Of a DNA stretch of 64,000 nt, positions 1 to 63,234 are shown one piece after another (the first letter of the stretch is position 1; each line of letters opens with the position of its first letter). The translations under genes and the position numbers were made by a program. This DNA comes from a virus (lineage: Duplodnaviria > Caudoviricetes), in IMG/VR virus record IMGVR_UViG_3300020045_001604, positions 1 to 64,000 of that record; one strand, written 5' to 3'. Below the pieces are notes generated by a model, which searched no databases, was not told where the DNA came from, and saw only the letters and a program-made list of their open reading frames with translations.

Positions 1-217
1 CTGTCCATTTGATCAAATCAGATGTAGAAGGGATTTCAGCAGACATTTGACGTAAGAAAGACGGAATAGAGCGATCTCCATAACGTGCAAATTCTTGCTC
101 GTAAGTGTCTGGTAAGTATTGACTTAAAAAGTCAAAATTTGTCAAGTAGTTGCTTTGCAATACTGACTTTGTTGAACTTGGAGTCAAATTGAATGACCCA
201 CCGATTGTACCTGCCAT
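1..217 (-). CDS. Major capsid protein, copy 1 (N-terminal 72 aa; runs off window start; not in ORF track)
   Basis: ATG at 217 translates to MAGTIGGSFNLTPSSTKSVLQSNYLTNFDFLSQYLPDTYEQEFARYGDRSIPSFLRQMSAEIPSTSDLIKWT. Hand alignment gives about 46/74 identities to the N-terminus of ORF 61834..63234. It lies directly downstream of scaffold and portal. Confidence 0.85.
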   Translation of the reverse strand, partial: MAGTIGGSFNLTPSSTKSVLQSNYLTNFDFLSQYLPDTYEQEFARYGDRSIPSFLRQMSAEIPSTSDLIKWT

Positions 218-238
218 TTTTGTTTAGGTGTTTGGTTA

Positions 239-1330
239 TTATTGCTTTTTACTTTTTATCTTGTATGAAGCCTCGTTACCTGCGTCTACTGATCTGACAG
301 TTATTCCATCCTTTCGAACTCCTTCTGGTTGAGACTTAACTCTTCCCATGTCGATGTTCTTGGAATCCTTTGAGATGTCTGCTACTCCAGCGGCTTTGCC
401 TTGGTTATAAGCAAACTCAAAAAACTTGTCAATGTCAGCAGCTGCTGCTAATGTTTTGTGATACTTCTCAGCGTCTTTGATTAAGCCATTTTCATCCACG
501 AATTGATTTAAGAAATTCTCAACGTTGGACTGTTTTTCTCTTAATGTCTTACCATCTGCTGGTTTAAACGTAACTTTTTCTTCGCCTAATGTAAAATTGA
601 AACCTTCAAAATTGTCAGACAATACTTCGTTCGTTTTTTCAGCAAAATAAGCAGAACGCTTTTGAACGTCACTAGCACTTGCTTGGCTCGATTCTTTATA
701 CTTCTTATAAGCCTCGTAGCTTTCTTTGTCTTCCTTAGAAACAAAATCCCCATTTGACACAAGTGGAGCTTTATACTGTTCCTTTAGAGACTCAAAATGC
801 TTTGTTGCTTTGTTAAGCTCTTGTTTTAGTTCGAGTTGTTTTTCGATTACTTCGTCCTCATCATCGATTTCCTCATCATAATTGAATTTCTTCATTTTGA
901 ATTCAATTTCTTTGTCAGATAAGGTTGGGTCTGATTCCTTGTAAAATTCTCTGATTAATTTCTTTGGGTCAACTGCTGTAAAGTCACGTTGTAACTTTTG
1001 GTAGTCATCCCATCCACGTCCTGTTTCATCTTTGTATTTTAAGAATGCTGCCACATCCTCTGGTACTTCTACTTTTGGTTGGCTCAACAGTTCGTTAAAT
1101 TCATCAAGAGATTTAACTTCTCTATTTGTTTTTGTTTTAATAAAAGAAAGAACTTCATCTTCAGTCAATTCTGCCTTAGTCACAACTGGGTCGATCACTG
1201 GATCTGCTGGTGGTACTACTGGTGGAATGTCTGCTTTAATTTCGTCTTCGTGCTTTTGGACCAATTCTTTCTCTACTTCCACAGCAGATCTAGACTCTCC
1301 GTCAGTCACTTTTACTCCTTTGATTTCCAT
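239..1330 (-). CDS. Capsid scaffolding protein, copy 1 (363 aa)
   Basis: Acidic, coiled-coil-rich protein between portal and MCP; homologous to 63248..64000 (shared GF.F.(L/V)G, NF..DENGLI and KNIDM motifs). Confidence 0.75.
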   Translation of the reverse strand: MEIKGVKVTDGESRSAVEVEKELVQKHEDEIKADIPPVVPPADPVIDPVVTKAELTEDEVLSFIKTKTNREVKSLDEFNELLSQPKVEVPEDVAAFLKYKDETGRGWDDYQKLQRDFTAVDPKKLIREFYKESDPTLSDKEIEFKMKKFNYDEEIDDEDEVIEKQLELKQELNKATKHFESLKEQYKAPLVSNGDFVSKEDKESYEAYKKYKESSQASASDVQKRSAYFAEKTNEVLSDNFEGFNFTLGEEKVTFKPADGKTLREKQSNVENFLNQFVDENGLIKDAEKYHKTLAAAADIDKFFEFAYNQGKAAGVADISKDSKNIDMGRVKSQPEGVRKDGITVRSVDAGNEASYKIKSKKQ

Positions 1331-1352
1331 TTATATTTGATTTAAATTGTTA

Positions 1353-1360
1353 CAAATTTA
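1353..1360 (-). promoter_or_regulatory. Bacteroidota-type -7 promoter box for scaffold/MCP copy 1
   Basis: TAAATTTG on the minus strand (consensus TAnnTTTG), about 22 nt upstream of the ATG at 1330. Confidence 0.55.
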
Positions 1361-1394
1361 ACAAAAAGTTTAATACGAGTGTTTTTTGTTAAAA

Positions 1395-3830
1395 TTACTT
1401 AGGTCCAAATGCTGAGAAGTCGAATGCATCAAAATTGTCATTTGTGCTTTCAAAGCTCTTTGCTGGAAGATTGTTTTGTCGTTGTTCAATCAAATCAGAC
1501 TGACGTGTAGCTTCTAGGTCCACTCGCTTATCCTTTCTATCTTCCTTTTCTTTTTCCTTTTTATTTATGCCCTCAACCTCCATTCCTTTCAGTTGCATGT
1601 TATAGTTAAATTCTTGCTCCATTAATTGACGCTTGTATTCAACCTCGGCACCCATTCGCTGAATATCCAATGCAACTTCATTTTGTTTTACTTGCATTTT
1701 TGCTTCAGCTTCCATTTGGATTTGCTCCTTTTTGGCTGATGTGGCTGCTTGTTGAGATTGTGCGTTAATTTCTGCTTGTTGAGCTGCTTGTTGATCTTCA
1801 CGCGCTCTTGAGTCCTCCATTTTACGTCGTCTCTTGAGCTTCAATACTTCATTAGCAAGCTTAATGTTCTTTACTCCTCTAATATCAATTGCATCCTCAA
1901 GGAAGATTTGATCTCTTTGAAGTGAAATCTGAATGTCTCGCTCTAGGGCATCTTTTTGTTCTTGATCTGGCTCAAGGTCGATAGATATACCAAAATCATG
2001 TAGATATAAATTCTTAATGTCTTCAAGGATTGCGATGTTGTATTTGCCTATTTGCATAGCAAACTGTTCTTTAAAGCTCGCGTATTCAAGTATGTCAGCA
2101 ATCCTCAATGAAAGACATAATGCCAATCTTCGAACTGTCATTAGTCTACCGTCAAGTACATGCTTGGTAGCAGTATTACTGTTCAATGCGGCAAGCTTCT
2201 GAAGCCCTACCAATGAATCCTCATTTGGCATTGACCCATCACGTGCTTCATTAAGTCCAGTCACGTCACGAATCATGTTCAAGTTAAAGTCGTATGAGGC
2301 AATAAGACCTTGTATCTTACTTTGTCCCCCGCTACTATTTAATTCTTGAATTGGTACGCGTCCGTTATTAAATCCACCCTCCTCAGTGTAAGATCTACCA
2401 ACTACCGATCCAGTCTGAAAGTACAACTTTAATGCATCCTCTGGATTATATGCGGCTCCACTTCCTAAATCTACCTCATTAATACCGTCAGCATCAATAA
2501 ATACACCATCTGGAACAATTCTGGCTTTGATTTGTTGTAGCTTCAAGTGATCCAATTGGATGCTATCGGCAAAAGGAATCATTCTCTTAACAAGAGACTC
2601 TATATTTCCTTTATACATTCTTGGAGCAACTGCTACGTAATTAGGTATAGCGTGTTGTGAAGCTGATTTAGGTCTAACCATGTTACGAGATAACTCCCAC
2701 TTCAACATGATATTAGTACCCATAACCATAACACCGTCATACCAAACATCAATAGTCTTTTCTATTTTTTCGAAACGACCTTCATCCATCATCTCTTGTG
2801 GAGGATTGAACGTGTCGTCTTTTTCTATCATTTTAAAACTTCCGTCTTCAAGTATCTTTTTCTTGTATACTATCTTCTTGGTTGTTTTATAGTTTACATA
2901 TAATAAAGTAGCCGTGTCATTACTGAATAAGCTATTATTATAAAATTGAGCTGAGTTGTAATAATCATACCATGACTGACTGTACTTAGAAATTTCTTCT
3001 AAATCTTCGTTGGTAAGTGTAGGATCTATTTTAACAAGCTCTGTAATTGGAACAGTCTTAATTTCTCCCCAATAAAAACAATCTTTAAAGTAAGGATCCT
3101 CTGTGTAGCTATATACTACATTAGCAGGATCTACATACTCTATTCTTACTCCGTCACCAGGAAGGAACATATGCTTAGCCATGCCGATACCAATTGTAGC
3201 GATATCGTAGTCTACTCTCTTTCTAGTTTCGTTATATTTATTTTCGTCAAGTACAGTGTTAATAGCTTCTTCTTCAGCTATCTCAATAGCAGGCTTATAC
3301 TTAAGCTGCATATATAACGAAAGCTCTTCGTCATTCTCAGGTAAGTCATCAGGATTAGTATCAAACGCATTAACACCAAACTGCTCCTTAACTTGAAGCA
3401 ACAGGTCTTTTGAAACCATGTCTGCTTGTATCATATCCTGATACTTAGATCTCTTATCCATAGACATAGCGTCCTGAGCATAAGCCTTAGGCTTGAATAA
3501 TCTATCGTTCATTCCGTTAACAACGATGTCAACGAACTTAGGTATAATAGGTACCGGAGTAAAGTCAAGGTTAGTATGAGACAAGTCACCATCAACGGCT
3601 ATCTGGTCCTTATACTTACCTATAGACTGCTCACCCCTTGCGTATAATCTTAGCTTATGGAAGTTACCCCACTGATCGTAGAATCTTGAGTTATTACCAT
3701 CTTTTCTAAACCACTCGTACTGAATACTTTGTGATATCTGCAATCCATACTCAAAAGTTTCCTTTTCCCTGTCTGAAGCAAACTGGTTTGGAAAAGCAGT
3801 TGCGGGTATATTTATTTTTACGTCTTTCAT
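1395..3830 (-). CDS. Portal protein (811 aa)
   Basis: Size and position between terminase and scaffold; PIIPKFVDIVVNG motif and Gln-rich C-terminal coiled coil typical of the large portals of Bacteroidota podoviruses. Confidence 0.85.
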   Translation of the reverse strand: MKDVKINIPATAFPNQFASDREKETFEYGLQISQSIQYEWFRKDGNNSRFYDQWGNFHKLRLYARGEQSIGKYKDQIAVDGDLSHTNLDFTPVPIIPKFVDIVVNGMNDRLFKPKAYAQDAMSMDKRSKYQDMIQADMVSKDLLLQVKEQFGVNAFDTNPDDLPENDEELSLYMQLKYKPAIEIAEEEAINTVLDENKYNETRKRVDYDIATIGIGMAKHMFLPGDGVRIEYVDPANVVYSYTEDPYFKDCFYWGEIKTVPITELVKIDPTLTNEDLEEISKYSQSWYDYYNSAQFYNNSLFSNDTATLLYVNYKTTKKIVYKKKILEDGSFKMIEKDDTFNPPQEMMDEGRFEKIEKTIDVWYDGVMVMGTNIMLKWELSRNMVRPKSASQHAIPNYVAVAPRMYKGNIESLVKRMIPFADSIQLDHLKLQQIKARIVPDGVFIDADGINEVDLGSGAAYNPEDALKLYFQTGSVVGRSYTEEGGFNNGRVPIQELNSSGGQSKIQGLIASYDFNLNMIRDVTGLNEARDGSMPNEDSLVGLQKLAALNSNTATKHVLDGRLMTVRRLALCLSLRIADILEYASFKEQFAMQIGKYNIAILEDIKNLYLHDFGISIDLEPDQEQKDALERDIQISLQRDQIFLEDAIDIRGVKNIKLANEVLKLKRRRKMEDSRAREDQQAAQQAEINAQSQQAATSAKKEQIQMEAEAKMQVKQNEVALDIQRMGAEVEYKRQLMEQEFNYNMQLKGMEVEGINKKEKEKEDRKDKRVDLEATRQSDLIEQRQNNLPAKSFESTNDNFDAFDFSAFGPK

Positions 3831-6077
3831 TTATCTAATAAGTTCACTTCTAGTTCCTGAGTTATTATACTTTGCAAAATTAACACTTATTTTCGACTCT
3901 TTCTTTGCCGCTAAGTATATGTTCTTCTGATTAGCCATAATAGCTAGTCCTGAACTGATTGCAGCATCAAATTTAGTTCTATTGTTTATATCAAATTTAG
4001 CCCACTCCTCTATAGTTCTAGTGAAATACATGTCGCCCATCTCATCAGAATCTCTATAAGTTCCTTCAGTATCCATTCCAACATACTTTTCTATATAAGA
4101 TTGAATAGCGGCCGCGTGCGATTGTTTCACATCTTCAGACGAGTTAGGTATACCTCCAAGCTCTCTTTCTGTTTTTGATAGATTCGTGAAGTGCTTATCC
4201 GGTCTGTTCATTGAAAACCCTCTGTATCCTCTATTCTTAAAGTGATATAGTAGTCTAGGTTTATTATTCTCCACTAGAATTGGCATACCATAAAATACAC
4301 AAGCCATAAGAACCTCCTCAAAAAATATCTCTGCCGTCTGAGGACGAGCTATATACTCAAGGAAGAAATGGTTACTAGGAGCATTATCCATATTAAACTT
4401 AGTAAGTCCGTGTAGAGATCCATTTGATCCTCCTCCTCCGACAGTTCCGGATATATCGTAAGGGTCACAGCCAAAAGCACCAATGTGCTCATTACCAGGG
4501 TACTTGTTTCCATTCTTATAAACTACTTGGTTCTGCATTGCTGAATTAGGAATCCATGAAACAAGGAATCTACCCCTTGGATCTGGAGTCCAAATAACCT
4601 GAGTGTCCTTCTCTCCGTTCTTCCAGTGAAACGATCCTCTAGTTAGTATTTGATCTCTTATTAGAGAGTCATTATAGTCTATCTGTTGATAGATCTTTGT
4701 TAAGTTAAACAAAGACGCCTTGCTCTCATCTCTAAACGCGTGAGACTCTGTTCTGGAGAACTGTCTATAAAACTCGTTCAATGCATCTGCATCATTCTTT
4801 AAAGACGCAACCTCATTCTCCCAATAATCTATAGCTCCGTTTGTTATTAGTCTACCGTCTATCCCAGTTACTGGAGTTTCTGGCTTTCTAAATACAGGCA
4901 TTCCGTATCTATCAATATAACCCTCGAAGTTCCACTCCATTGGAATGTAAAGAGAGTACATACCTGATTTTGTCTGGCCGTTCTCGTTACGTGTTTTTAT
5001 ATTTGAATCCTCGTATAGCTTCTTAAAGTTAGATCCACCCTTAGCAAGCGCGTTAGGAGTTGAACCCATCATACATTTACCGATAATTCTACTACCTAAA
5101 CGAAGACAAGTCTTTCTAACTCGCCATCCGTTAAGGATATTGTTAGGAGCTTCTAGCTTACCAGACTCGTCCTCAACAAGATATACTAATTTCTCCCCGT
5201 CATAACTGTTATCAGCCGTGTTCTTCCAGTCAATAGACGTATCTAATCCTTCTAGTTCAGCTTCTGAACTGTCGTACATATTCTTCTTTGTAATCTTAGA
5301 TGCAGGAACCCTGAAGGCAAGTTCAGTCTTAGGTTTGTCCATACCATCCATGATCGGTTTAAAGAAGAATGGTAGATTGCTAGATATAGGAACAACCTTA
5401 TTAGTAAACATAGTCTTAGCGTCACCCCCTGTCTTAGACTGGATACCAATCCTAGCGTCTTTCGCTAATGTAGCTATATTTACAGCCTCCGATGAAGCCA
5501 TAAAAGAAAATCCAGAACGTCTAATCTTTAAGTAAACCATACCGAAGCATCTGTCATCTGCGCGACATGCCTCCCAGTAAATAAAGAATATTCTATTAGC
5601 CTCACGAAAGTCAGGAAGTCCGACGTCAATCTTTGTCCATTGACAGTACATGTAGTGAGATCCAGTCATATAAGTCTCCACTCCATTATTCATGAAGAAG
5701 AATCCGTTCTCTCTTCTGTCGAACTCAGTCTCTATATAGTCAACCCACTTAGACTTGAAATCATTAGGCATATCATGCCAATGAAATATAGACTTTATTT
5801 TATCTAACTCCTTAGGATATTCAAATGGTTGCCAGTATTGATTTTCTTTTTTCTTATCTCTAGAGTATACTACATCTGGAGTTTTAGGCAGAGCTATAAG
5901 AAGTCCGTTTATATTATAAACTTCACCTATGGTTCCGTTCTTAGATATAACAATCATGTCATACTTCTCGTCGTATCCGTACTGCCAAGACTTTTTATTA
6001 TTCTTGTTAGCTAGAACAGTTGGAGGAATATGATTCTTTACAACCGAGTATAAATTATTTTGATCGTTTTTCTGCAA
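3831..6077 (-). CDS. terL: Terminase large subunit (748 aa)
   Basis: N-terminal ATPase motifs (LKIRRSGFSF; LVEDESGK) and C-terminal RNase H-like nuclease motif (GCDPYD); adjacent to the portal. Confidence 0.9.
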   Translation of the reverse strand: MQKNDQNNLYSVVKNHIPPTVLANKNNKKSWQYGYDEKYDMIVISKNGTIGEVYNINGLLIALPKTPDVVYSRDKKKENQYWQPFEYPKELDKIKSIFHWHDMPNDFKSKWVDYIETEFDRRENGFFFMNNGVETYMTGSHYMYCQWTKIDVGLPDFREANRIFFIYWEACRADDRCFGMVYLKIRRSGFSFMASSEAVNIATLAKDARIGIQSKTGGDAKTMFTNKVVPISSNLPFFFKPIMDGMDKPKTELAFRVPASKITKKNMYDSSEAELEGLDTSIDWKNTADNSYDGEKLVYLVEDESGKLEAPNNILNGWRVRKTCLRLGSRIIGKCMMGSTPNALAKGGSNFKKLYEDSNIKTRNENGQTKSGMYSLYIPMEWNFEGYIDRYGMPVFRKPETPVTGIDGRLITNGAIDYWENEVASLKNDADALNEFYRQFSRTESHAFRDESKASLFNLTKIYQQIDYNDSLIRDQILTRGSFHWKNGEKDTQVIWTPDPRGRFLVSWIPNSAMQNQVVYKNGNKYPGNEHIGAFGCDPYDISGTVGGGGSNGSLHGLTKFNMDNAPSNHFFLEYIARPQTAEIFFEEVLMACVFYGMPILVENNKPRLLYHFKNRGYRGFSMNRPDKHFTNLSKTERELGGIPNSSEDVKQSHAAAIQSYIEKYVGMDTEGTYRDSDEMGDMYFTRTIEEWAKFDINNRTKFDAAISSGLAIMANQKNIYLAAKKESKISVNFAKYNNSGTRSELIR

Positions 6078-6342
6078 ATCCTTGTATTTTAGGTTCTGGC
6101 TTAGCTACTTCTTTAGGATCCTCATTTAGTTTTTCTCTTTCGGATTCTATTCTGTTTAAAATTTCAAACGCATCGAATATAGCTAATTTCTTTGCTGATG
6201 CTGCATTCTTTAGTTTGTCAGCAGCTAAATCAGTACCGTCGTCGATAGGTTTCAATATCTGATCTGATGCAACTTTAATTAGTTCCATTACAGCCTTTTC
6301 TCCAGCTTCAATTATTTGTAATTTAATTTCTTTTAATTCCAT
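6055..6342 (-). CDS. Possible terminase small subunit (95 aa)
   Basis: Small helical protein immediately upstream of and overlapping terL; positional inference only. Confidence 0.4.
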   Translation of the reverse strand: MELKEIKLQIIEAGEKAVMELIKVASDQILKPIDDGTDLAADKLKNAASAKKLAIFDAFEILNRIESEREKLNEDPKEVAKPEPKIQGFAEKRSK

Positions 6343-6899
6343 TTAAGTGTGATGTTATTAGTAAACATCCTGTATAGTTTTTGATCTTCTATAGTAAAAG
6401 GATATTCACTATTTGGTTCAAATGCAATTTCATCTCCGACATTAAGTCCTAGAGATAGTAGTTCGTTATTTATATAAGCAATAGTTCCTATAAGAGGTTC
6501 TTCCTTACAGTTCTTTTTAATTATTGATTCTTTTGATTCTGTAGGTTTAATAAAACAGTACTTAGAGTGAGCCTTCCATACATCATTATGTTTGTACATA
6601 AAGAATTGTTCTTGGTCAACAAAGAATAAGTCGTCCTTAAAGTAACTGGCACCGCTCTTCTGTCTACCCTTCATATCGTAATAAAACTTAAATACGTTGT
6701 GGTGTACTAGTAGTATATCTCCAGGAGTTATTTCGCCAACATATCCAATTGGAGTCTCAACAACCTCAGCATATCTATTAGAGACCGTATGGTCTTCTTG
6801 AGATACGCTTGTAATTAAATCAAGTCCTCCTATCTCTTTGATATTGTCGTATCGCCTACCATTTAACGGTCTAACGATAAATAGGTTAGGAGACTTCAT
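6333..6899 (-). CDS. Tandem GroES-like fold protein (188 aa)
   Basis: Two halves resemble Cpn10 motifs: FIVRP..EIGGLDLI..AEVVETP..ITPGDILL and CFIKP..GTIAY..LNVGDEIAF..FTIEDQKLYRM. Confidence 0.5.
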   Translation of the reverse strand: MKSPNLFIVRPLNGRRYDNIKEIGGLDLITSVSQEDHTVSNRYAEVVETPIGYVGEITPGDILLVHHNVFKFYYDMKGRQKSGASYFKDDLFFVDQEQFFMYKHNDVWKAHSKYCFIKPTESKESIIKKNCKEEPLIGTIAYINNELLSLGLNVGDEIAFEPNSEYPFTIEDQKLYRMFTNNITLKWN

Positions 6900-7371
6900 T
6901 AGAAGTTGATATTATATTCTATAGATATCGGCATGTTAGAATTAAACTCCTTCCAAAGAAATACTTCGTCTTCCTTCTCTATCCAGATTTTTATTCCTCC
7001 AGTATTCTCATCAACTCGCATTAAGTGAATTGTATAAGACTTATCGAGTATTGGTTGCCCCACAATATAGTGCATTCCATTGCTTTTGTAGTCAGCGCCT
7101 ATGGTTATTTTTCGGATATCAAACATTACTGTACATTTAAGTTTGTAATGTTTCCACTCTCAGTATTTATAGATACATCTGATCCATAAATCTTAATAAG
7201 CTCCTTCTTGAATTCTTCTCTTCCAATATACTTATCATTGATTTGTCTAAGTATATCAGATTTTTTAAATTCAAACTCAGATGTTAGTTCTCCTAGAGTC
7301 TCGTTTGCTTTTTTAAAGAAATGCTCAAAGCCCTGAAGCTTTTTTAATTCTTCGTCTTTTATTTTGTTCAT
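6899..7371 (-). CDS. Two small hypothetical proteins (6899..7126, 75 aa; 7126..7371, 81 aa)
   Basis: Abutting ORFs with start/stop overlap in the packaging operon. Confidence 0.6.
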
Positions 7372-7393: not shown

Positions 7394-7657
7394 TTAGTGT
7401 ACTATCTTAAGTACATCTCCGGTTCTATAAACCTTTCCTACTGCTAAACCAGCTGTTACGGCTGCTGCATTATCTGCATATTCTAATACACCTGTAAATG
7501 ATGGTGTATTCATTATAAGTAAGTTTTGCTGTAAAAAGCTAATAACGTCTGCGAATGTAAAGTTTTTAGTCTCTAAACTATTCTCGGCATCTGTTCCTAC
7601 TAACTTATCTTCTAATGTTATCTCTGTGTCGTCTGGATATTGACTTATTTTGGTCAT
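7394..7657 (-). CDS. Short virion protein sharing the tail-fibre N-terminal domain (87 aa)
   Basis: MTKISQYPDD..DKLVGTD..TKNFT aligns with MTKISTYTLD..DKWIGSD..TKNFT of 11520..14627. Confidence 0.55.
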   Translation of the reverse strand: MTKISQYPDDTEITLEDKLVGTDAENSLETKNFTFADVISFLQQNLLIMNTPSFTGVLEYADNAAAVTAGLAVGKVYRTGDVLKIVH

Positions 7658-7682
7658 AATACTTTTTATTTCAATTCATTGG

Positions 7683-7725
7683 CAAATATACGAATATTTT
7701 TTTTAAGTTAAATTTCATACCTTTG
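7683..7725. promoter_or_regulatory. Divergent Bacteroidota -7 promoter boxes
   Basis: TATATTTG on minus (7683-7690) before ORF 7657 and TACCTTTG on plus (7718-7725) before ORF 7745. Confidence 0.6.
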
Positions 7726-7744
7726 ACGACAAATTTAATTAAAT

Positions 7745-9829
7745 ATGAAAATACTATACCTAGCGCCTCATTTATCTACAGGAGGAATGCCGGCTTTTCT
7801 ATTGAAGACAATAGAAACACTTAAAGACTATGTTGAAATATGCGTTGTAGAATATGCATGTCACAGTCTTGATTATGTTGTACAACGTAATGCTATTATG
7901 GATCTTGTGCCTGTACACACGCTGCATGAAGATAAGATGGAACTCTTTAATGTAATAGACCAATTTAATCCGGATGTCATTCATATACATGAGCCATCAG
8001 AAAGATTTGATAGAGCAATGATTACTAAGTTGTATGACAACGATAGAACGTATCGTATTATAGAAACATGTCACGATGTATCATTTAAACCAGATGAAGA
8101 GAAGATCTTTCATCCAGACTATTATGCATTCTGTACTCCTTATCATGTAGATACATTTGGTAATATGCCATCTATGTATAGTATTGTAGAGTTTCCTATT
8201 GATAATAATTCAATATCAAAGCAAGAGTGTCATGAAGCTAAGATGTATCTTGGTATGGATGTTAATACGAAACACGTTGTTAATGTTGGCCTATGGACTC
8301 CTGGTAAAAATCAAGGTGAGATGTTAGAGTTAGCTAAGCAAATGCCAGACGTAGTATTTCATTTTGTAGGTAATCAAGCTATAAACTTCAAACACTACTG
8401 GGGTCCACTTGTAAAAGATGGGGTTCCGGATAATGTAAAGATATGGGGAGAAAGAGATGACGTCGATATGTTCTTAGATGCTGCGGATGTATTTATGTTT
8501 AATAGTACGTGGGAATGTAACCCACTTGTTGTTAGAGAAGCTATATCAAAAGGCAAGAAGATAATTGCTAGAAACCTTCCTCAGTACAAGAACATGTTTA
8601 CTAGATACATTGTAAATCTAGATATAAGAAAGTTAAAGAATCAGCTATCAGATCTTATTGACGATAAAACTACATACGATATACTTGAAAACAACACAAC
8701 AGCTAATTTTAAAAATAAGCTACTATCACTTTATAAATCAGCCATTAAATTTAATATAATGAAGAACGACGTTAAAGATTATAATATTACGCAGCACTTT
8801 GTTGGACAGCCTTTTTTAGAGATTACAGGTACTAGCGATAGTGATTTTACTGTAGAATTTTATGACGAAGAAGATAATTTATTTTATAGAAATACAATAA
8901 AAGTAAATCACTGGGTCAGACTAAGTAAGGAGTACTTCGTTAAATGGACTACCAAGGTGTACAAAGATGATGAACTAGTCTATACTAATGTATTAGACTA
9001 TACAAATAAGAGAGTTTATATTGCTTTTGATAGTTCTTCATTAGGAGATAATATCGCTTGGATGCCTTATGTAGAAGAGTTCAGAAAGAAACACAACTGC
9101 AAGATGATTGTATCTACATTTAAAAACTTCTTGTTTGAGTCTAAGTACCAAGATATTGAATTTGTTGATCCAGGATCTGTCGTTCCTAATTTATATGGAA
9201 TGTATAAGATTGGTTGGTTCTATGACGTCAATAAAGAACCCGTATTACCAAACACTATACCGTTACAAATGGCAGCTACAAACATCCTGGGTCTTGAGTA
9301 TACAGAGATAAGACCTGAGATTGTAAATAGTAGAACGCATCTTGCATTAAAACACGTTACAATAGCCACTAACAGTACGGCAGGATGTAAGTTCTGGACT
9401 AGAGAAGGCTGGCAAGAAGTAATCAACTATTTACATGGAGAAGGATATTTAGTAATAAATACATCTAAAGAATCTAATCCTTTCGATAATTGTCAACCAT
9501 TAGTTGATACAAGCATGACATCTACGATGACTGCAATATATAATAGCAAGTTCTTTATTGGACTATCTAGTGGATTATCATGGCTGGCTTGGGCATTAGA
9601 AACTCCTGTTGTTATGATATCTAACTTCACAGAGGAAAATCATGAGTTTAGTTGTCATAGGGTAACAAATACTAATGTATGTCATGGATGCTGGAATGAT
9701 CCGAAATTTAAGTTTGATCGTGGAAATTGGACTTGGTGTCCCATCAACGAAGGTACTAAGGATCAATTTATTTGTCATACAAGCATTACATCTGAAATGG
9801 TTATAAATGAAATTAAAAAACTATTATAA
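7745..9829 (+). CDS. Bifunctional glycosyltransferase: GT4-like GT-B domain fused to a TibC/BAHT-like autotransporter heptosyltransferase domain (694 aa)
   Basis: N-part has STGGMP, KNQGE and FNSTWECNPLVVREA (GT4-like E-x7-E). C-part has SSSLGDNIAW, FFIGLSSGLSWLAWA and a Cys cluster CHGCWN..WCP..C like the Fe-binding motif of TibC/AAH. Confidence 0.75.
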   Translation: MKILYLAPHLSTGGMPAFLLKTIETLKDYVEICVVEYACHSLDYVVQRNAIMDLVPVHTLHEDKMELFNVIDQFNPDVIHIHEPSERFDRAMITKLYDNDRTYRIIETCHDVSFKPDEEKIFHPDYYAFCTPYHVDTFGNMPSMYSIVEFPIDNNSISKQECHEAKMYLGMDVNTKHVVNVGLWTPGKNQGEMLELAKQMPDVVFHFVGNQAINFKHYWGPLVKDGVPDNVKIWGERDDVDMFLDAADVFMFNSTWECNPLVVREAISKGKKIIARNLPQYKNMFTRYIVNLDIRKLKNQLSDLIDDKTTYDILENNTTANFKNKLLSLYKSAIKFNIMKNDVKDYNITQHFVGQPFLEITGTSDSDFTVEFYDEEDNLFYRNTIKVNHWVRLSKEYFVKWTTKVYKDDELVYTNVLDYTNKRVYIAFDSSSLGDNIAWMPYVEEFRKKHNCKMIVSTFKNFLFESKYQDIEFVDPGSVVPNLYGMYKIGWFYDVNKEPVLPNTIPLQMAATNILGLEYTEIRPEIVNSRTHLALKHVTIATNSTAGCKFWTREGWQEVINYLHGEGYLVINTSKESNPFDNCQPLVDTSMTSTMTAIYNSKFFIGLSSGLSWLAWALETPVVMISNFTEENHEFSCHRVTNTNVCHGCWNDPKFKFDRGNWTWCPINEGTKDQFICHTSITSEMVINEIKKLL

Positions 9830-10461
9830 TGGCTTTTGTGTATAGACATATTAGATTAGATAATGGAAATCCATTCTATATAGGAATAGGAAAAAGTGAA
9901 GCAAGAGCATATTCAACAAAAGGTAGAAGTAAGTTCTGGCAAAGAATAGTAGACAAATGTGGATATGAAGTTGAGATATTATTTGATAATTTAGATTATG
10001 AACAAGCTAAATTAAAAGAACAAGAGTTTATATCTCTTTACGGTAGAGCAAATACTTGCAATGGACTCTTATGTAACCTAACTGATGGAGGAGATGGTAG
10101 TTTAGGCTATAAACCTACAGAAGAAGCATTATTAAAAATAAGTAATACTAGTAAAGGTAGAGTAAAAAGTGTAGAGCAAATAGAAAAATGGAAAAGTAAA
10201 ATGAATTTTACTAAATCTGATGAGACTAAGGAAAAAATAAGACAGAGTTTATTAAATAAACCTCACACAGAAGAAAGAAAAACAAATCAAAGTAAAGCTC
10301 ATATAGGTAAAAAGTTATCAGATGCTGCAAAATTAAAATTAAGTATCTATTGGAAAGGTAAAAAGAAAAAACCTATATCAGAAGAAACTAGAAAAAAGAT
10401 GTCAGAGTCTAGGAATAAATACGTATTAAAACAACAAGAAATAATAAAGCTCCTTAATTAG
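9829..10461 (+). CDS. GIY-YIG homing endonuclease with NUMOD3-like repeats (210 aa)
   Basis: VY-x10-YIG N-terminus (FVYRHIRLDNGNPFYIGIG), NLTDGGDG, and Lys-rich repeats (KSDETKEKIRQS, HTEERKTNQSKA, ISEETRKKMSES). Confidence 0.8.
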   Translation: MAFVYRHIRLDNGNPFYIGIGKSEARAYSTKGRSKFWQRIVDKCGYEVEILFDNLDYEQAKLKEQEFISLYGRANTCNGLLCNLTDGGDGSLGYKPTEEALLKISNTSKGRVKSVEQIEKWKSKMNFTKSDETKEKIRQSLLNKPHTEERKTNQSKAHIGKKLSDAAKLKLSIYWKGKKKKPISEETRKKMSESRNKYVLKQQEIIKLLN

Positions 10462-10471
10462 GAGCTTTATT
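10443..10471. terminator. Bidirectional terminator-like hairpin at convergent gene junction
   Basis: ATAAAGCTCCT-TAATT-AGGAGCTTTAT with A/T tails on both sides. Confidence 0.6.
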
Positions 10472-10472
10472 T

Positions 10473-10655
10473 TTATGGTTTCACAACATTCTTTTTCATA
10501 GGACCTTCTGGTCTTTGATCTGGTGGTGTTGAGATTACCTCGATAGCCTTAGCGATTGCAACAGCCTGTTGTAGCGTGAATGCTCCTTTTAGTTGAGCGT
10601 CGTTAGCAGCTTGGACAAGTATTCCTAATGCTTGATTTACATCCATGTTCTCCAT
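10473..10655 (-). CDS. Hypothetical protein (60 aa)
   Basis: ORF preceded by a TATATTTG box at 10676-10683 (minus). Confidence 0.6.
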   Translation of the reverse strand: MENMDVNQALGILVQAANDAQLKGAFTLQQAVAIAKAIEVISTPPDQRPEGPMKKNVVKP

Positions 10656-10694
10656 AATATATTTGATTTTATTTGCAAATATAGTGAAATTATT

Positions 10695-11153
10695 TTATTG
10701 TGTAAATATTATTTGACCTATCCCTGTAGCGGTACCTGCTGGAGAAACATTACAGCTAAAAGTATAACTATAAGTTCCAGCAGATAAAGTAAATGTTGTT
10801 GAGTTTAAAGTTCCAGGACCTAACTGCCTAGCTCTTCTAGCGTTTCCATTTATATTGATATTGGTATCTGTAGTAACAAATCCTGTTGAAGTTGATCTAG
10901 CATTAAAAGTAGCAGCTGAACCTACTATAGTAACTGTTCCACTATAACTACCAAAACCCGTACCTGTGTAAGAATACGAACTGCTAAACGTAACTGAATT
11001 AACTGGAGCAGGACTGTATCCGTAAAAATCAGATATTCTGTCGGGCGTATTAAAATCAGCTATGTCGCTTAATACTCTAAGAGAACCACTAGAAGTTCCT
11101 AATTCGTTTCGAATCATATTTATAGATAAGGTCCCTGAAGGTGGTAATGCCAT
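10695..11153 (-). CDS. Tail-fibre-associated virion protein (152 aa)
   Basis: MALPPSGTLSINMIRNELG N-terminus, commonly seen downstream of phage fibres, followed by a Thr/Ser/Gly-rich beta domain. Confidence 0.5.
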   Translation of the reverse strand: MALPPSGTLSINMIRNELGTSSGSLRVLSDIADFNTPDRISDFYGYSPAPVNSVTFSSSYSYTGTGFGSYSGTVTIVGSAATFNARSTSTGFVTTDTNININGNARRARQLGPGTLNSTTFTLSAGTYSYTFSCNVSPAGTATGIGQIIFTQ

Positions 11154-11160
11154 AACTTAT

Positions 11161-11520
11161 TTATATTGTCGGTACTTCTGGAGTTGGTTGTGCCCAAGGA
11201 GAAGGTACAGGTTCGTATTTAGGATTTATCTTAGCTTCAATTTGTTTTACAATACGCTCCTGCATATGCGCAACATCAGCGGTAGCTTCCAACCAAGCTA
11301 CAATATTATCTGGTTGTAATTGTGAAAAAGGAATATAGTTTTGCGTATCTTCTGGTAAAGGCATAGGAGTTGCTCCTGCAAATATTCCTTCTACACCATT
11401 TTCGTCTACACCAACATAGTTGTATCTAACTCTTGTTACTACGTCTGTTAAATCCCCTAACACTGGAGCTATCTCCAGTTTCATTGTGTCATCTGTTAAG
11501 AATGTGAATGTGATTGCCAT
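11161..11520 (-). CDS. Putative tail fibre assembly/accessory protein (119 aa)
   Basis: Directly follows the fibre; YIPFSQL..IVAWLE..P.PW motif typical of fibre accessory proteins. Confidence 0.5.
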   Translation of the reverse strand: MAITFTFLTDDTMKLEIAPVLGDLTDVVTRVRYNYVGVDENGVEGIFAGATPMPLPEDTQNYIPFSQLQPDNIVAWLEATADVAHMQERIVKQIEAKINPKYEPVPSPWAQPTPEVPTI

Positions 11521-14500
11521 TATTTTTTTATTAATTGATTAACCAATTGTTTTAATTCTTCTATTTGTGTTTGTTGTTCTTTTATTGCTTCAATAAGTAA
11601 AGGTGTTAATTTACCATAATCAAGAGTCTTATATCCGTGCCCAATAGGAGCATCTTTAATTATTTCTGGAAGTATAGCTTCAACTTCTTGAGCAGAGACA
11701 CCAACTTCCTCCTTGTATTTATATCCTAATTTTTGAGCTTTAGCATTAGGTGTATAGTAAAATCCATTCAAAGATAAAACTTTTTCTAATGCGTTTTGAA
11801 TGTTTCCTTTTTTATCTTTAAGTCTTTCATCTGAATAGTATGCAACAACATCCCCCGCAACTCTAATTGAGTCCCCTGTTGAAGAACCATCAAAATAGTA
11901 AGATGTATTATTATAATCATAAAAAACAGTTCCGTAAACAGCTCCGCTAAAATTAGAATATGAAGAATAATTTCCAGTATGTAATAATGTTTGCCAAGCA
12001 TACCAACTTCCTGATTGTTGTCTTCTAATACGAACATCATCACCCCAAAACGAGTATGCCATTTGCCATCTATATCCATCAGATCCACTCCAGCTATTAC
12101 CAGCTACAGTAAGCCAGTTCCACCAATCTGTACTAGGCATTCCTGTTACACCGCTTCCGAAATAGAACCCTGATGAGTTAGAAGAATCCGAAGTGTTGGC
12201 ATTTGTATTATTTTTTGACCTACCGTTTGCTCCATCACCATACACAACATTGTTTGCTCCTGAAAATGTACCTGCTACTGCAAGGTTATTTATGTTAGAC
12301 GTAGATGTAGGATCTACATAATATCCTGTATTATCACTATCGTAGAAGATAGGTGCTCTAAAATCCCCAGTTGCAGATATTGTACTATCTCCATCAGTCC
12401 AAAGCCTTTTCCAGGAGTTATATACACCAGCGTCACCATTTCTCGTTCTTATAAAAAAAGCATTTCCTCCACCTCCATATCCACCTCCTAACCATAAATC
12501 ATATCCACCACCAGTGCTAAACCTAGCAATTGGACCATAAAAGGGGGCATTATTAGCATAAGTAAATCCAGATGCATTAGAGTCCATTGTATTAGCATCA
12601 AGAGTAAATCCTTGATAATAAAATATATTACTAGGTTTACTAGTTACATTACTCCAAGGAACACTTGTTGGTGTTACACCACTAGTACCACTAGTACCAC
12701 TAGCTCCTGATCCAGAAGTTCCACTTGTACCATTAACACCAGAGGTGCCGTTAACACCTGATGTCCCGCTAACTCCGGATGTACCTGATGTTCCATTAAC
12801 ACCACTTGTACCATTAACACCAGACGTACCTGAGGTTCCATCTACTCCGCTAGATCCTGAACTTCCTGACGTTCCTGTAGTACCTGACGTACCGTCAATT
12901 GCACTAGTTCCACTAGAGCCGGACGTTCCTGTAGTTCCAGAACTACCCGAAGTTCCAGTTGTTCCAGAAGATCCGCTAGTACCAGTTGACCCAGAAGTAC
13001 CTGATGTACCTGATTCAGCTGCAATAGATGTTGTTACATAAGAATACTCTCCATCCTCCGTATACCAAGATACTATTTTTGATGTGCTTTGATTATTACT
13101 AACGTATATCTTAACAATCATTCTGTCTGTTGCAGATATAGCTGTATGTGGGAACACGAAGTCTACATTAGCCTCGGCAGGAATTCCAGTTCCGTTCCAA
13201 GGTATATTTATAGCTGCTGAAGTTGCTGGAGATCCATAAGGCACTCCTGATGAATTAGCAAGCTGTAATGTTACATAAAGTAATATTATATCGTTTGACT
13301 GCTCCTTAAGAGCATGAAAATGAAATCTCTGAACTCCAGAAGGTATAATTGTAAATCCTAGTTGATTAGTCATGAACTCTTGAACAAGAGCGTCCTGTTG
13401 ATTACCGGCTAGATTTAGTGTTATTGTTTGTAGTGCTGCTAATGTAGGAGTTGTACTTAGTAATTTATATGGAGATACAGAAGAATTTTCGCTATTATTA
13501 AAATAATATACTCTACCTCCACTAACTCCATCTATACCGGATGTTCCTCCAGTTCCTGAAGTCCCAGTTGTACCGCTTGTACCACTTGATCCAGAGCTTC
13601 CAGAAGTACCCGTTGTACCAGAAGTACCGTTACTACCATCTGTACCAGAAGTACCTGTAGTTCCCGATGTTCCCGATGTTCCCCCCGTACCATCAGTTCC
13701 ACTAGATCCGGATGTTCCGCTACTACCTCCTGTACCATCAGTACCTGATGTTCCTGAACTACCAGATGTTCCATTACTTCCGTCTGTTCCTGAGCTTCCG
13801 CTTGATCCGCTAGTTCCGTCTATACCTGATGTTCCGTCTATACCAGACGTTCCGTTTGTTCCGTTTGTTCCGCTACTTCCTGAGCTACCTGACGTACCAG
13901 AAGATCCTCCTGTACCGTCTGTTGCAGATGTACCGCTACTACCACTGGTTGCTGATGTACCGCTCGTTCCGTTACTTCCGTCAGTGCCTGAAGTGCCACT
14001 GCTACCGCTTGAGCCTGATGTACCTCCTGTTCCGTCTGTACCGCTTGATCCACTAGTCCCAGAACTTCCTGATGACCCGCTAGAGCCTGAAGTTCCACTA
14101 GTACCATCGACCGGTGAATAAGCACTAAGAAGAGATACCATGTAGTCCTCATCCTCCTCCATGTATCCGTTTCCTTCTCTATACTCTACGGTTACTAAGA
14201 AAAAATTAGGCTCTTCATCGTATATTACAACATCCGTTACCTTATAGTAACCAAATGAATTTATGTCTTTTGATTTAAATAATAGTATCTCAGTTCCATT
14301 TAAAAAATTTAAATACTCAGATACATCATTTTGTTTTGTTGTGTACTTACTAAGTAAAAATGTGGTTATAGCAGAAAAATTAACCGTCGGTCCAATCTCT
14401 GGATTAAAGGTTAATGTTCCATTTGGTCTTTGCTCTAACGGATCTAAAGTATAGTACTTATACTGTATTGGAACCCCTATATTTATTACCTGATTATCAT

Positions 14501-14627
14501 TAAAGTACTCAGCTAATTTTTTAGGTGTAAAGTTCTTAGTTCTATTCTGATTATTAACATCAGATCCAATCCACTTATCAAGTGCGGTTATCTTTTCGTC
14601 TAATGTATATGTACTTATTTTTGTCAT
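11520..14627 (-). CDS. Tail fibre / receptor-binding protein with GTSG repeats and C-terminal Peptidase S74 chaperone (1035 aa)
   Basis: Two long Gly-Thr-Ser repeat blocks; C-terminal YSDERLK..L.GFYY..GVSAQEVE.ILPE..LIEAIKE intramolecular chaperone signature. Confidence 0.85.
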   Translation of the reverse strand: MTKISTYTLDEKITALDKWIGSDVNNQNRTKNFTPKKLAEYFNDNQVINIGVPIQYKYYTLDPLEQRPNGTLTFNPEIGPTVNFSAITTFLLSKYTTKQNDVSEYLNFLNGTEILLFKSKDINSFGYYKVTDVVIYDEEPNFFLVTVEYREGNGYMEEDEDYMVSLLSAYSPVDGTSGTSGSSGSSGSSGTSGSSGTDGTGGTSGSSGSSGTSGTDGSNGTSGTSATSGSSGTSATDGTGGSSGTSGSSGSSGTNGTNGTSGIDGTSGIDGTSGSSGSSGTDGSNGTSGSSGTSGTDGTGGSSGTSGSSGTDGTGGTSGTSGTTGTSGTDGSNGTSGTTGTSGSSGSSGTSGTTGTSGTGGTSGIDGVSGGRVYYFNNSENSSVSPYKLLSTTPTLAALQTITLNLAGNQQDALVQEFMTNQLGFTIIPSGVQRFHFHALKEQSNDIILLYVTLQLANSSGVPYGSPATSAAINIPWNGTGIPAEANVDFVFPHTAISATDRMIVKIYVSNNQSTSKIVSWYTEDGEYSYVTTSIAAESGTSGTSGSTGTSGSSGTTGTSGSSGTTGTSGSSGTSAIDGTSGTTGTSGSSGSSGVDGTSGTSGVNGTSGVNGTSGTSGVSGTSGVNGTSGVNGTSGTSGSGASGTSGTSGVTPTSVPWSNVTSKPSNIFYYQGFTLDANTMDSNASGFTYANNAPFYGPIARFSTGGGYDLWLGGGYGGGGNAFFIRTRNGDAGVYNSWKRLWTDGDSTISATGDFRAPIFYDSDNTGYYVDPTSTSNINNLAVAGTFSGANNVVYGDGANGRSKNNTNANTSDSSNSSGFYFGSGVTGMPSTDWWNWLTVAGNSWSGSDGYRWQMAYSFWGDDVRIRRQQSGSWYAWQTLLHTGNYSSYSNFSGAVYGTVFYDYNNTSYYFDGSSTGDSIRVAGDVVAYYSDERLKDKKGNIQNALEKVLSLNGFYYTPNAKAQKLGYKYKEEVGVSAQEVEAILPEIIKDAPIGHGYKTLDYGKLTPLLIEAIKEQQTQIEELKQLVNQLIKK
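12675..13015 (-). repeat. Coding GTS/GSS/GTT tripeptide repeat, block 2
   Basis: About 110 aa of GTSGSTGTSGSS..GVNGTS repeats, imperfect at the DNA level. Confidence 0.9.
13520..14108 (-). repeat. Coding GTS/GSS/GTD tripeptide repeat, block 1
   Basis: About 195 aa of DGTSGTSGSSGSSG..GTDG repeats, imperfect at the DNA level. Confidence 0.9.
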
Positions 14628-26152: not shown

Positions 26153-28926
26153 ATGGAAAAAATAACACAAGACGGATTTGCGTGGCAGATCCTAGACAGA
26201 AACGATGCAATACAATACTTTCACGATGGCAAGACAATCTTTGCCCTTCGCGATGATGAGAGTGAATCACAGATAGTAACAAGACAAGACCTTGAAGACG
26301 CACTGGACTGGGATGACGTCCAGATTGGAGTAGAGATTGGATTTATAAAAACAAGCAAGATATGAGAACACCGATAAAACAAAACGAGGTTAGGCTGTAC
26401 CCTAACAGCACAACATGTCCGTACAGATTTAATGTGAGTATCAGTAACGACTGGTTCAATCAAGAATTTGTATACAAGGTATACGACAATAAGGTTGTAT
26501 TTAAGAGACCTACACTAGAATCAAAAAAGTTTCCAACTAGGGCAAGGAAGACTGGTAACTCATGGACATTCTTCCTAACCATACTAGACCAAGACAACCT
26601 AAGACTAGAGATACAAGACGAAGATATTAACGAAGACGAAGCAATACTATACCTATGAACGAACACCAAATAAAAGCCAGAGAGATTGTAATTAAGATGC
26701 AATTTCAACCGAATCCATTAGCATTTGAACAAGCGAGAATGTGCGCTTTAATAGCAGTTAATGAGATATTAGACGCTATTGATTGGCACAATTTTGAATT
26801 CCCAAATAAAGAATTTATATATTGGCAAGAAGTTAAACAAGAAATAGAAAAGTTATGAAACAAACAGCAGTAGAATGGTTACTTACTTATTTACCACAAA
26901 TAGATTATGGTAATGACCCATATTATAGAGATATAATTGAACAAGCCAAAGAAATGGAAAAGCAACAAATTATTGATGCGCACGGTTCAAAACAATATCA
27001 TAAATCAATTAATGGAGAACAATACTACAACGAAACATTTAACAAATAAAATTATGATACAGATACCACTAGCATTAGCCGTAGTAATTATTATAGCAAT
27101 ACACACAACACTAACACACTTAATGAATTGGGGAATACGAGAAGCGGAAAAGCAAGGAGATAACAATGCAATAGGGCTTTGTTTATTCTTTTCATTTTTA
27201 GAAATAACCTCAGTAATAGCACTACTATGCAACATGAAGCCAGTATAAAGATATCCTCTAAGTTAGAGTGTCTCAACAGAGAACTAAAGAGTCTATACAA
27301 CGACTTCTTTAACAACAACGGAATAATCGATTCCGATACGGTAGCGACAATGATAGTCAGCACAGAGCGTGAAATAGAAATTTATAAATACATTAATAAT
27401 TTAATAGATGAGAAGAAAAGTAAACATCAAGAACTATCTTGACAGAGAGCGCGAGTACAATAAAAAATTTGGGCAACTAGCTAAGTACGAGATGAAGGAT
27501 AACAATCTAAATTGGGAAGACGCTAAGAGACTAACAAGACAGAACATAATTTTTGCACTAATTAAATACGAAATACAGAATGGCAACATATAAAGAGGCA
27601 GTACAGAACAAGCTAGACACTTGGTACAAGACACTGGGACGACAAGAACTTTGTAAACTATACGGGGTAGACGATCCAGATCAGGAAATTATTAACTTAT
27701 GGTATAACATGTCGATCGATGACAAAATAACAATCTACGATGAAATCAACTAAACAAGAAACAATTGAACAAGCATCAGAATACCACGCACATAACTATT
27801 TTGATATGCACGAAACAAATAACTATAAAGCACTAAAACAGGGGTTTGAAGCAGGTGCTAAATGGCAGCAAGAACAATACAAGAAAAAGTTTAGTGAGGC
27901 AATTGATATTTTTGAATATATTTTAGAGTATGATGATGGAGTTGGTATTGCTTTAGGGTATAATTCAAGGGTAATGATTGAAAGATTTATAAATCAATTT
28001 AAAAACAAATAAGATATGTTAAAATTAAACACAAAAGTAAAAGTAGAAAATCAACAAACTTCTTTTACGGGTACTATTGAACGTATAATGAAATGGGAAA
28101 ACCCATTTAGTAGAAGCAAAGGTATTGATTATGTCGTAAGAGCAGATGACGACAACGAATTGTACAAATGTGCAGAAGAAGAAGTTTTAGAAATTTAAAA
28201 AAAAATAAGATATGACAGCAGTAGAATGGTATTCTCAACAACATTTAAAACTTTTAATCAAGTTAGAAAATAAAGAATTAAGTATCGGAGAATACGCAGT
28301 GCAACACCAAGAAATTTTGCACAAAGCCAAAGAAATGGAAAAGCAACAGATTATTGATGCTTTTAATGAAGGACAAGCCTTGAATGTAAGAGGTAAATTA
28401 ATTCAAGGTAAAGAATGGTTTGAACAATTTAAAAACAAATAAGATATGATACATTTACCTTGGATATTATTCTTAATTGGACATATAGGTTACACTTTAT
28501 ATGTAAAAGACGAAGCGTTTTGGTTTAGAAATACCAATAGTAGGATTAATGATGAATTAATGATGTTAATATTTGGCTTTGTGGCTTTTGTTGGTATTCT
28601 ATCGTCAGTTATGGTTTACGGAATAATGTTAATAGAATTAATTTAAAAACAAATAAGATATGGAAACAGAACAATCAAGATTACAAGAAATAAGAGTAAA
28701 ATTAGACAATTCAAATTCAAGGTTATATAATTTTTCAAATGACCTTTATTTACAAACTTCAAATTTATGTGGTGAATTTCCAAGACTTATAAATGAATTG
28801 CTGAATGAAGAAGTGAGTGATTTTTATGTAGATATTTTTAACGCTCAAATTAGATTTCAAAAACACATTACTGCTGATATTGAAAATACATTAAGTTATT
28901 TAAAATCAGCCACGAATAAGATATGA
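26153..28926 (+). CDS. Array of about 13 small hypothetical proteins, including recurrent phage families (TAVEWL..AKEMEKQQIIDA at 26855 and 28212; ALIAV.EIL..EVKQEIEKL at 26655)
   Basis: Tightly packed track ORFs 26153, 26362, 26655, 26855, 27179, 27408, 27740, 28016, 28212, 28446, 28660, plus small ORFs not in the track. Confidence 0.6.
26829..26858 (+). repeat. 30-nt dispersed direct repeat
   Basis: GAAGTTAAACAAGAAATAGAAAAGTTATGA, identical at 39248-39277 and with one mismatch at 39442-39471; includes stop and next start codons. Confidence 0.85.
27996..28662 (+). repeat. 23-nt gene-junction repeat, three copies
   Basis: AATTTAAAAACAAATAAGATATG at 27996-28018, 28426-28448 and 28640-28662, each ending in a start ATG. 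Confidence 0.85.
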
Positions 28927-61833: not shown

Positions 61834-63234
61834 CTAGTTCTCGAACAAGAAGAAGTTGTTAGCACCTAAAGTACATAAAGCTCTTTCTGACAAGAAGTGA
61901 ACTTCCATAGCATCTAAGCTAGAAGTTTGTGCTCCACCAGCAGAACCAGTAATCCAAGTTTTGTAACGTCTGTCTTCAGTTTCAGAAGCTCTATAACGAA
62001 CGTGTAAGAATGGACGTTTAGCGTTTTTACCAAGTACTTGATCGTAAACAGTAGTAGATCCAGCAGGAACTAATACACCATTGATAGCACCTCCAACAAC
62101 TCCACCTCTAAGTGTAGCGTCGTTTAAGTATTTCCAGTCAGTTTTGTAGAAATCGTAACCTCTACGGAATCCTGTAAATCCTAAGTTTAATGCCATTTCT
62201 TTATCGTTGTCGAACAATCCGTAAGATGTTCCACCAGCTCCGTAAGAGTTTTGAGCAGCCAACATATCGTCGATATCAAAAGAGAATTGACGGTTGATGA
62301 ACAATACGTTCTCTTCGATAGCTCCTTGCTTATCCAAACGTTGGATGATAGCATCAAAATCAGATAAAGCAGTTGGGTTACCACCTGACCATACGTTACC
62401 TCTTTGTCCTACAGCGTAGAATAAACCTTCTGATCCTTTGTTTCCAAAAGCAGTATTAGCTACAGCTCCAGAGTTAGCCTCAGCAGGAACAGCTTCGATC
62501 ATAGACATTTCTAAGTAATCTTCGAAACGCAAACGAGTTTCGTGCTCAGATTTAATGTACCATAAGTATCCAGTAGCACCATTTTCAGTAGTTACTTCAA
62601 CCCATCCGATTTGAGCCATGTCAGAACCAGAAACAGCGTATTTCTCTTTGATGATGATTGGGCTGTTTTCGAAGATATCGTCTTGAGCCTCTAAAGATTC
62701 AGTTTGACCTTCAGTTCCTTTTTTGAATTCAGAACCATAAACAAAAGCAGTAACAGTTGCAGTAGCAGCGAAAGACTGTCCAGCAGCTTCGTAGTAAGCT
62801 ACGTCAAAAGTACCAGCAGTATAATCAACAGAAGTGATGATTGCTTTGTTTGAGTTAGCAGCAGCAGCGTTATCTGATAAGAAAACTGTTTGCCCTGGTT
62901 TGAAAGCGATAGAACCTGTTAAAGCATCACTTACTGTAATTGTAGCAGTATCTCCACCTACAGCTGCGTCAGAAGCACAGTCAATGTATTTAGTGTGAAG
63001 ACGACCTTGCTCTGCCCATTTGATAAGGTCTGAGTTAGACGGCATTTCAGCTCCTACTGCTCTTAAGAAAGATGCAACAGAACGATTTCCGTAACGCTCG
63101 AATTCTTTCTCGTAAGTATCAGGAAGATACTGATTCAAGAAGTCGAAATTTGTAATGTAGTTAGTGCTTAAAGTTTGTCTTGTAGCACTTGGTTGTAATG
63201 CAAACCCTGGGGTTGCTTGTACTGATCCAGCCAT
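61834..63234 (-). CDS. Major capsid protein, copy 2 (466 aa)
   Basis: Follows the scaffold, has a strong terminator and biased codons; QYLPD.YE.E.ERYGNR, DLIKWAEQGRLH, FYKTDWKYLND, F.SER.LC..GANNF. Confidence 0.85.
   Translation of the reverse strand: MAGSVQATPGFALQPSATRQTLSTNYITNFDFLNQYLPDTYEKEFERYGNRSVASFLRAVGAEMPSNSDLIKWAEQGRLHTKYIDCASDAAVGGDTATITVSDALTGSIAFKPGQTVFLSDNAAAANSNKAIITSVDYTAGTFDVAYYEAAGQSFAATATVTAFVYGSEFKKGTEGQTESLEAQDDIFENSPIIIKEKYAVSGSDMAQIGWVEVTTENGATGYLWYIKSEHETRLRFEDYLEMSMIEAVPAEANSGAVANTAFGNKGSEGLFYAVGQRGNVWSGGNPTALSDFDAIIQRLDKQGAIEENVLFINRQFSFDIDDMLAAQNSYGAGGTSYGLFDNDKEMALNLGFTGFRRGYDFYKTDWKYLNDATLRGGVVGGAINGVLVPAGSTTVYDQVLGKNAKRPFLHVRYRASETEDRRYKTWITGSAGGAQTSSLDAMEVHFLSERALCTLGANNFFLFEN

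Follow-up and report, generated by a model that had tools for sequence, protein, structure and literature searches.

The sequence analysed here, referred to as the window, comprises bases 1-64,000 of the 73,787-bp IMG/VR record IMGVR_UViG_3300020045_001604, an entry with the topology class 'linear' and a CheckV completeness of 100%. At the left end of the window, all on the minus strand, lie the first 72 codons of a major capsid protein (MCP) gene truncated by the start of the record (2..217), a scaffold gene of 363 aa (239..1330), a portal gene of 811 aa (portal A; 1395..3830; PHROG portal, E 4.9e-135) and a terminase gene, TerL, of 748 aa (3831..6077; PHROG TerL, E 9.6e-170). At the right end, again on the minus strand, an MCP gene of 466 aa (61834..63234; PHROG 13704, head and packaging, E 8.4e-104) is accompanied by a scaffold gene of 367 aa (63248..64351) that is open at the window end at 64,000. 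Beyond the window, the record contains a second portal gene of 814 aa (portal B; 64394..66838) and a second TerL of 745 aa (TerL-B; 66835..69072). A Pfam search gave no match for the MCP, TerL or scaffold proteins, and a P22-portal match was found only below threshold. Both portal genes contain a word of 17 nt, GCAAAAGGAATCATTCT, that is translated as RMIPFA from the minus strand and is present as an exact repeat at 2569-2585 and 65568-65584, an offset of 62,999.

The two occurrences of this word delimit three segments. The left flank, X (1..2568, minus strand), consists of a portal C-terminal half, the scaffold and the 72 MCP codons, all from a second phage. The central segment, M (2569-65584), comprises one entire phage unit of 62,999 bp and, in addition, the repeated word; it has a single head module of which the cpn10-like gene, TerL and the portal N-half are at the left end and the portal C-half, scaffold, MCP and tail genes are at the right end. 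The right flank, Y (65585-73787), carries TerL-B, genes of 98, 183 and 86 aa, two GT2-like genes and an FkbM-type methyltransferase gene. The X and Y pieces, of 2.6 kb and 8.2 kb respectively, together provide 10.8 kb of sequence beside the 63-kb genome of M.

An earlier note, made from the window, had described scaffold and MCP pairs at its two ends; all of the coordinates hold, and the separation of 63,017 bp that it had given matches the distance between the MCP start codons, the portal and terminase genes being offset by 62,999 bp. Identity between the MCP N-termini, counted by hand as 46/74 or about 62%, is 63% by BLASTP (46/73, E 4e-32), and the scaffolds are indeed the more divergent pair at 40% (100/249, E 1e-54; 40.6% over the full length). 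Portal B shares 61% of its residues with portal A and TerL-B 64% with the first TerL, and the small paralogues of 98, 183 and 86 aa on the right are 43-50% identical to those of 95, 188 and 75 aa on the left. The homology between the copies covers seven genes, stopping near 7126 in the left copy and near 70163 in the right one. The record thus amounts to some 1.17 genome lengths, with a diverged second pass. The relatives have genomes as long as this spacing of 62,999-63,017 bp, and it could be proposed that the record represents a terminally redundant genome, or a circular one that was assembled beyond its starting point. The ends of such a genome would be identical or nearly so; self-BLAST gives no more than 65% DNA identity for the copies, which are 40-64% identical in protein, are without end overlap and lose their homology after seven genes. 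Because of this divergence in DNA the record is not a terminal repeat, nor is it a simple circular overlap, as had been stated previously, and this explanation can be given almost no credence.

The earlier note had also held that only the left pair follows a terminase and portal. This is correct inside the window but not for the record, in which the portal and terminase that the note had proposed to look for past 64,000 are both present, together with the three small paralogous genes. The note had regarded such a find as evidence against a double head cassette and, since the second portal and TerL do sit beyond 64,000, the double cassette is refuted in the terms in which it had been put forward.

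The arrangement of M was examined in close relatives, which were fetched from IMG/VR using both scaffolds and compared with the record by sliding identity and base-level alignment. Three contigs from three samples that are 96-100% identical to the record (L008, L010 and L012) match the right copy as far as 65567 and, starting at 2586, the left copy, and four others at 82-92% identity (L011, L014, L015 and L082) show the same switch from 65567 to 2586; in the alignment, the switch of every M-type relative falls inside the 17-nt word. IMG/VR and a metagenome collection (JGI metagenome contigs) were scanned for the junction with a degenerate 57-nt pattern to which any of the four flank combinations could match. 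This returned 8 contigs from IMG/VR and 3 from the metagenome collection, two of the latter being contigs already among the 8. All of the matches are M-type, giving 11 M-type junctions against 0 hybrid junctions, whether X/M or M/Y, in the contig collections scanned. The junction-bearing contigs near whole-genome length are G001 (IMGVR_UViG_3300036945_000174; 63,043 bp), G002 (IMGVR_UViG_3300020043_002236; 64,053 bp), JACCEB011561931.1 (64,593 bp), for which the comparison covers the M-type portal junction only, and a run contig of 62,391 nt.

G001 and G002, both rated 100% complete by CheckV, belong to the same phage lineage as M and have one MCP each, these two being the only near-full-length contigs searched for MCP; their single MCPs are 99% and 100% identical in amino acid sequence, respectively, to the M-type MCP. 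G002 is collinear with positions 2569-65567 of the record, its nucleotide identity to M being 95-98%, with 98.1% over 43870-66082 (22 kb). Its proteins are 100% identical to those of both ends of M, that is, to TerL and the 95-, 188- and 75-aa proteins of the left copy and to the scaffold and MCP of the right copy, whereas its portal is only 81% identical to each portal of the record. G001 and G002 differ from the record in that both flanks, and an island at 7666-14124, are absent from them.

The same closure was seen in public sequencing runs. In none of these does the fraction of sampled words from positions 1-6000 exceed 0.45, and 20 runs from 10 studies contain a part. In the Logan contigs of four runs, each from a different study, coverage sets in at 2565 with a depth of 13-117 and positions 1-2564 are uncovered except for a trace in one run; these runs are not the source sample, and the uncovered stretch says nothing about the source sample. 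In all four there is a contig with a loose end preceding 2565, and this end has the sequence of the right-copy flank (...CTTCAAGTGTGTCATCTGAATTAA). In every other data set examined, positions 2569-65584 of the record thus close on themselves as a 62,999-bp unit.

These observations bear on the possibility, raised in the earlier note, that one phage carries two head cassettes or that a head-module swap was caught with both copies present. Both gene sets are intact on a single IMG/VR record rated 100% complete, as would be expected of a real phage genome of at least 74 kb with two head/packaging cassettes and alternative or mixed capsids. However, the inner 63.0 kb closes on itself elsewhere with one head module, the outer pieces are assigned to other lineages, the avoidance of palindromes described below breaks sharply at the right join, and both ends of the record fall within the duplicated region. 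Furthermore, independent genomes give no example of both copies on one molecule: one MCP is present in G001, in G002, in the X-type genome G003 (IMGVR_UViG_3300046004_001044) and in each of 85 cultured relatives. The double cassette is consequently unsupported and must be considered highly improbable.

The foreign origin of the flanks can be seen in the portal genes. In protein alignments, portal A is 100% of the G002 (M) type up to RMIPFAD (residues 1-415) and 100% of the G003 (X) type thereafter (residues 416-811), and portal B, with a Y-type N-half and an M-type C-half, is approximately 100% of the type of P0122, a natural Y portal, up to RMIPFAD and then 100% of the G002 type. Natural portals are uniform along their length, at 806 aa for X (P0252, G003), 811 aa for M (G002) and 817 aa for Y (P0122-P0126). 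The only natural full-length portal with an X-type C-half is P0252, which is of the G003 type throughout and has an N-half 53% identical to that of M; G003 continues across the position of the join into its own portal N-half. The natural relatives of the N-half of portal B (P0122-P0126) are 99, 94, 89 and 87% identical to it and continue into their own C-halves, which are 61-64% identical to M and 54% to X. No other full-length protein reaches 90% identity to portal A among approximately 15 billion, portal B forms a singleton cluster, and the hybrid portals are found in this record only. In the cluster look-ups made to contrast the counts of natural and hybrid portals, short fragments serve as the cluster representatives, so that these counts carry no information on the contrast.

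Both joins are located in sequence that is common to the sources. The 17-nt word was found in 63 of the 271 family loci fetched; G003, as the proxy for X, and M have an exact 23-mer in common at the word; and M and Y have RMIPFADLIQ in common at the protein level, so that the DNA word shared by these two could reach approximately 30 nt. Between the two copies in the record, the exact match is limited to 17 nt, which is less than the smallest k of common metagenome assemblers. At the ends of the record itself no comparable word was seen: at the left end there is no branch-point word above 12 nt between G003 and M, and no shared word was found at the right end.

Outside the portal gene the two flanks are likewise foreign to M. 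Positions 1-2629 of the record are 96% identical in nucleotide sequence to G003 (55.5 kb), no other part of which is matched; the X scaffold is 98% identical to those of G003, L005 and L006, and the N-terminus of the X MCP is 100% identical to that of G003. G003 has its own single MCP (one 457-aa frame, 68% identical to the M-type MCP), its own TerL and its own tail genes. Members of the 90% cluster of the X-type scaffold are located on contigs of 45.9-118.7 kb. One of them, P0247, is on a contig of 118,689 nt, about twice the genome size of the family, and this may be an over-long or chimeric assembly. For the Y flank there are no close IMG/VR relatives, the best matches being 68% in amino acid sequence for TerL-B and 70% for a P0124-type portal. 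Of the other Y-flank genes, the FkbM-type methyltransferase (72279..72944) matches Pfam PF05050 (E 2.4e-11) and the two GT2-like proteins are encoded at 70975..72191.

The Y flank is further distinguished by its composition. GATC is absent from it (24.3 expected), as is CTAG (15.4 expected; 39.7 for both jointly), and it is also depleted in CCGG, AGCT, TCGA and GGCC. M, by comparison, has 207 GATC (223 expected) and 220 CTAG (232 expected), X has 12 (10.6 expected) and 4 (3.8 expected), and no avoidance of either word was seen in G001-G003. The strong avoidance of palindromes in Y is thus not shown by the related M and X. The tetranucleotide distance of Y to M, 0.263, exceeds the maximum of 0.237 among chunks of M of the same size, and this, together with the complete absence of GATC and CTAG, indicates that the evolutionary history of Y differs from that of M and X. 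The break in composition is restricted to the right join, none being seen at the left. A simpler model in which X and Y are the two ends of one phage, into which M was inserted by one crossover, was rejected for three reasons: first, the C-half of natural Y portals is only 54% identical to X; second, natural X portals possess their own N-half; and third, GATC and CTAG occur at normal counts in X and are missing from Y.

It is possible that the two hybrid portals are the products of natural recombination at the RMIPFAD word, one recombinant combining the packaging genes of M with the head genes of X (portal A) and another the packaging genes of Y with the head genes of M (portal B), and that these were merged by the assembler along a backbone of M or sequenced as a hetero-concatemer. 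Mosaic module exchange between phages is well known from Hendrix-type mosaicism, and the present case resembles it in that the border within the portal gene splits a packaging-side from a head-side module: the switch point makes sense as a border between modules, parting the TerL-side half of the portal from the half on the side of the scaffold and MCP. The ORFs of both hybrid portals are, moreover, full length and in frame, and an exact word of 17 nt is awkward for a purely k-mer-based join. Nevertheless, natural recombination is an unlikely explanation. Unlike in Hendrix-type mosaicism, the analysis found no natural genome in which such an exchange had occurred, the hybrid portals and junctions being confined to this record and absent from IMG/VR, the JGI metagenome contigs, the approximately 15 billion proteins and the four runs. 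It would also require two independent rare events at one word, both dominant in one sample, in addition to an assembly error, and the lack of GATC and CTAG in Y beside their normal counts in M shows no shared history. Were it correct, the podoviruses of this community would be swapping a packaging module (TerL and the portal N-half) against a head module (the portal C-half, scaffold and MCP).

The record is instead very probably a chimeric contig, and the duplicated head module an assembly artefact as opposed to a property of a phage with two head cassettes. M closes on itself in other data, its flanks are foreign, the hybrid portals are unique to this record and the composition breaks at the right join. 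The joins themselves would have arisen during assembly, or in chimeric library molecules, at a node of the graph common to members of the family. It is suggested that three related podoviruses of Flavobacteriia type, X, M and Y, were present together in one sample and that the conserved portal word, the codons for RMIPFA(D) common to these phages, provided the node. The assembly path may have entered M at this word from a G003-like X, made one full turn of the approximately 63.0-kb genome of M and then exited at the same word into Y. The result would be the order X, M, Y, with the head/packaging region represented twice, as X plus M and as M plus Y, and it is because such a path doubles this region that the record would contain two diverged pairs of scaffold and MCP genes and two hybrid portal genes. 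Inter-genome chimeric contigs arising where related viruses carry conserved sequences have been documented as artefacts of viral metagenome assembly (Vazquez-Castellanos et al. 2014, PMC3901335). The present record is like those chimeras in that segments of related viruses are joined at a conserved sequence, and differs in that the path also circles one circular-mapping genome completely. Owing to this full turn around M, the chimera mimics a duplicated head module and passes the completeness check at 100%. The earlier note had offered a tandem or chimeric join of two related phages as an alternative; the chimeric join of relatives stands, but the record does not consist of two concatenated genomes, being one complete 63.0-kb genome with a foreign piece at each end.

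This has consequences for the use of the record. With its rating of 100% complete it would be taken for a 74-kb phage in which the head genes are duplicated, and analyses of gene content, taxonomy, host prediction or palindrome avoidance would be misled by it; its two portal proteins, probably in-silico hybrids, are now in protein databases. As a by-product of the analysis, the natural lineages X, M and Y and the clean unit 2569-65584 are delimited.

M belongs with the podoviruses of Flavobacteriia, alongside Elemovirus, Maribacter phage Panino and the Cellulophaga podoviruses; the M-type MCP is only 50% identical in amino acid sequence to that of Elemovirus (55% to that of Panino). M shows the features of an Elemovirus-like phage, with homologous MCP, portal and TerL proteins (PHROG and tblastn), the head-gene order of MT497078 and, at 62,999 bp, a genome of about 60 kb. 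Homologous MCPs, at 50-68% amino acid identity, are found in Elemovirus (Flavobacterium phages vB_FspP_elemoA/E, ~60 kb), Panino (77 kb), the Cellulophaga podoviruses and Caudoviricetes sp. MW202828 (60.9 kb), and by tblastn each of the 85 cultured relatives, with genomes of 60-77 kb, has one MCP locus. The Elemovirus record examined (MT497078) has an order like that of M, namely a cpn10-like gene, TerL, portal, scaffold, MCP, and tail and large structural proteins, in one copy each. All of these phages are distant relatives, whereas M, X and Y represent uncultured freshwater or aquatic lineages.

Several other genes were noted in the course of the analysis. The 188-aa gene at 6333-6899, represented in the right copy by the 183-aa gene at 69365-69916, occupies the position immediately upstream of TerL at which one would expect a small terminase. 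Its PHROG match is a co-chaperonin GroES (E 1.2e-23), its Elemovirus counterpart is annotated 'chaperonin cpn10' and Pfam Cpn10 is matched below threshold. A relative of TerL-B from another metagenome, P0028, is 1087 aa long, approximately 340 aa longer, and Pfam PF05204 and PF05203, presumably homing-endonuclease or intein-type domains, lie over the insert; it is possible that P0028 is a terminase of this phage family that carries an intein.

The variable island at 7666-14124, which is inside M, contains, on the plus strand, a glycosyltransferase-like gene of 694 aa and, on the minus strand, a gene for a 1035-aa protein (11520-14627). Absent from G001 and G002, it is present in the M-type contigs of the sequencing runs labelled X1, X3 and X6, and local replacements are seen in run contigs at 9718-10437, 10696-11094 and 11619-12679. 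Conservation of the 1035-aa protein in G001 and G002 is confined to approximately 170 aa at one end (80-82%). The first 48 residues of an 87-aa ORF at 7394-7657 (minus strand) are 44% identical to the N-terminus of the 1035-aa protein, a similarity that looks like a duplicated N-terminal anchor domain. Elsewhere in M, three small paralogous ORFs of 65-67 aa (26655-26858, 39080-39277 and 39274-39471) are 44-56% identical and have near-identical ends of 30-40 nt (97% between 26819-26858 and 39238-39277), and a 37-nt repeat is present at 26943 and 28324.
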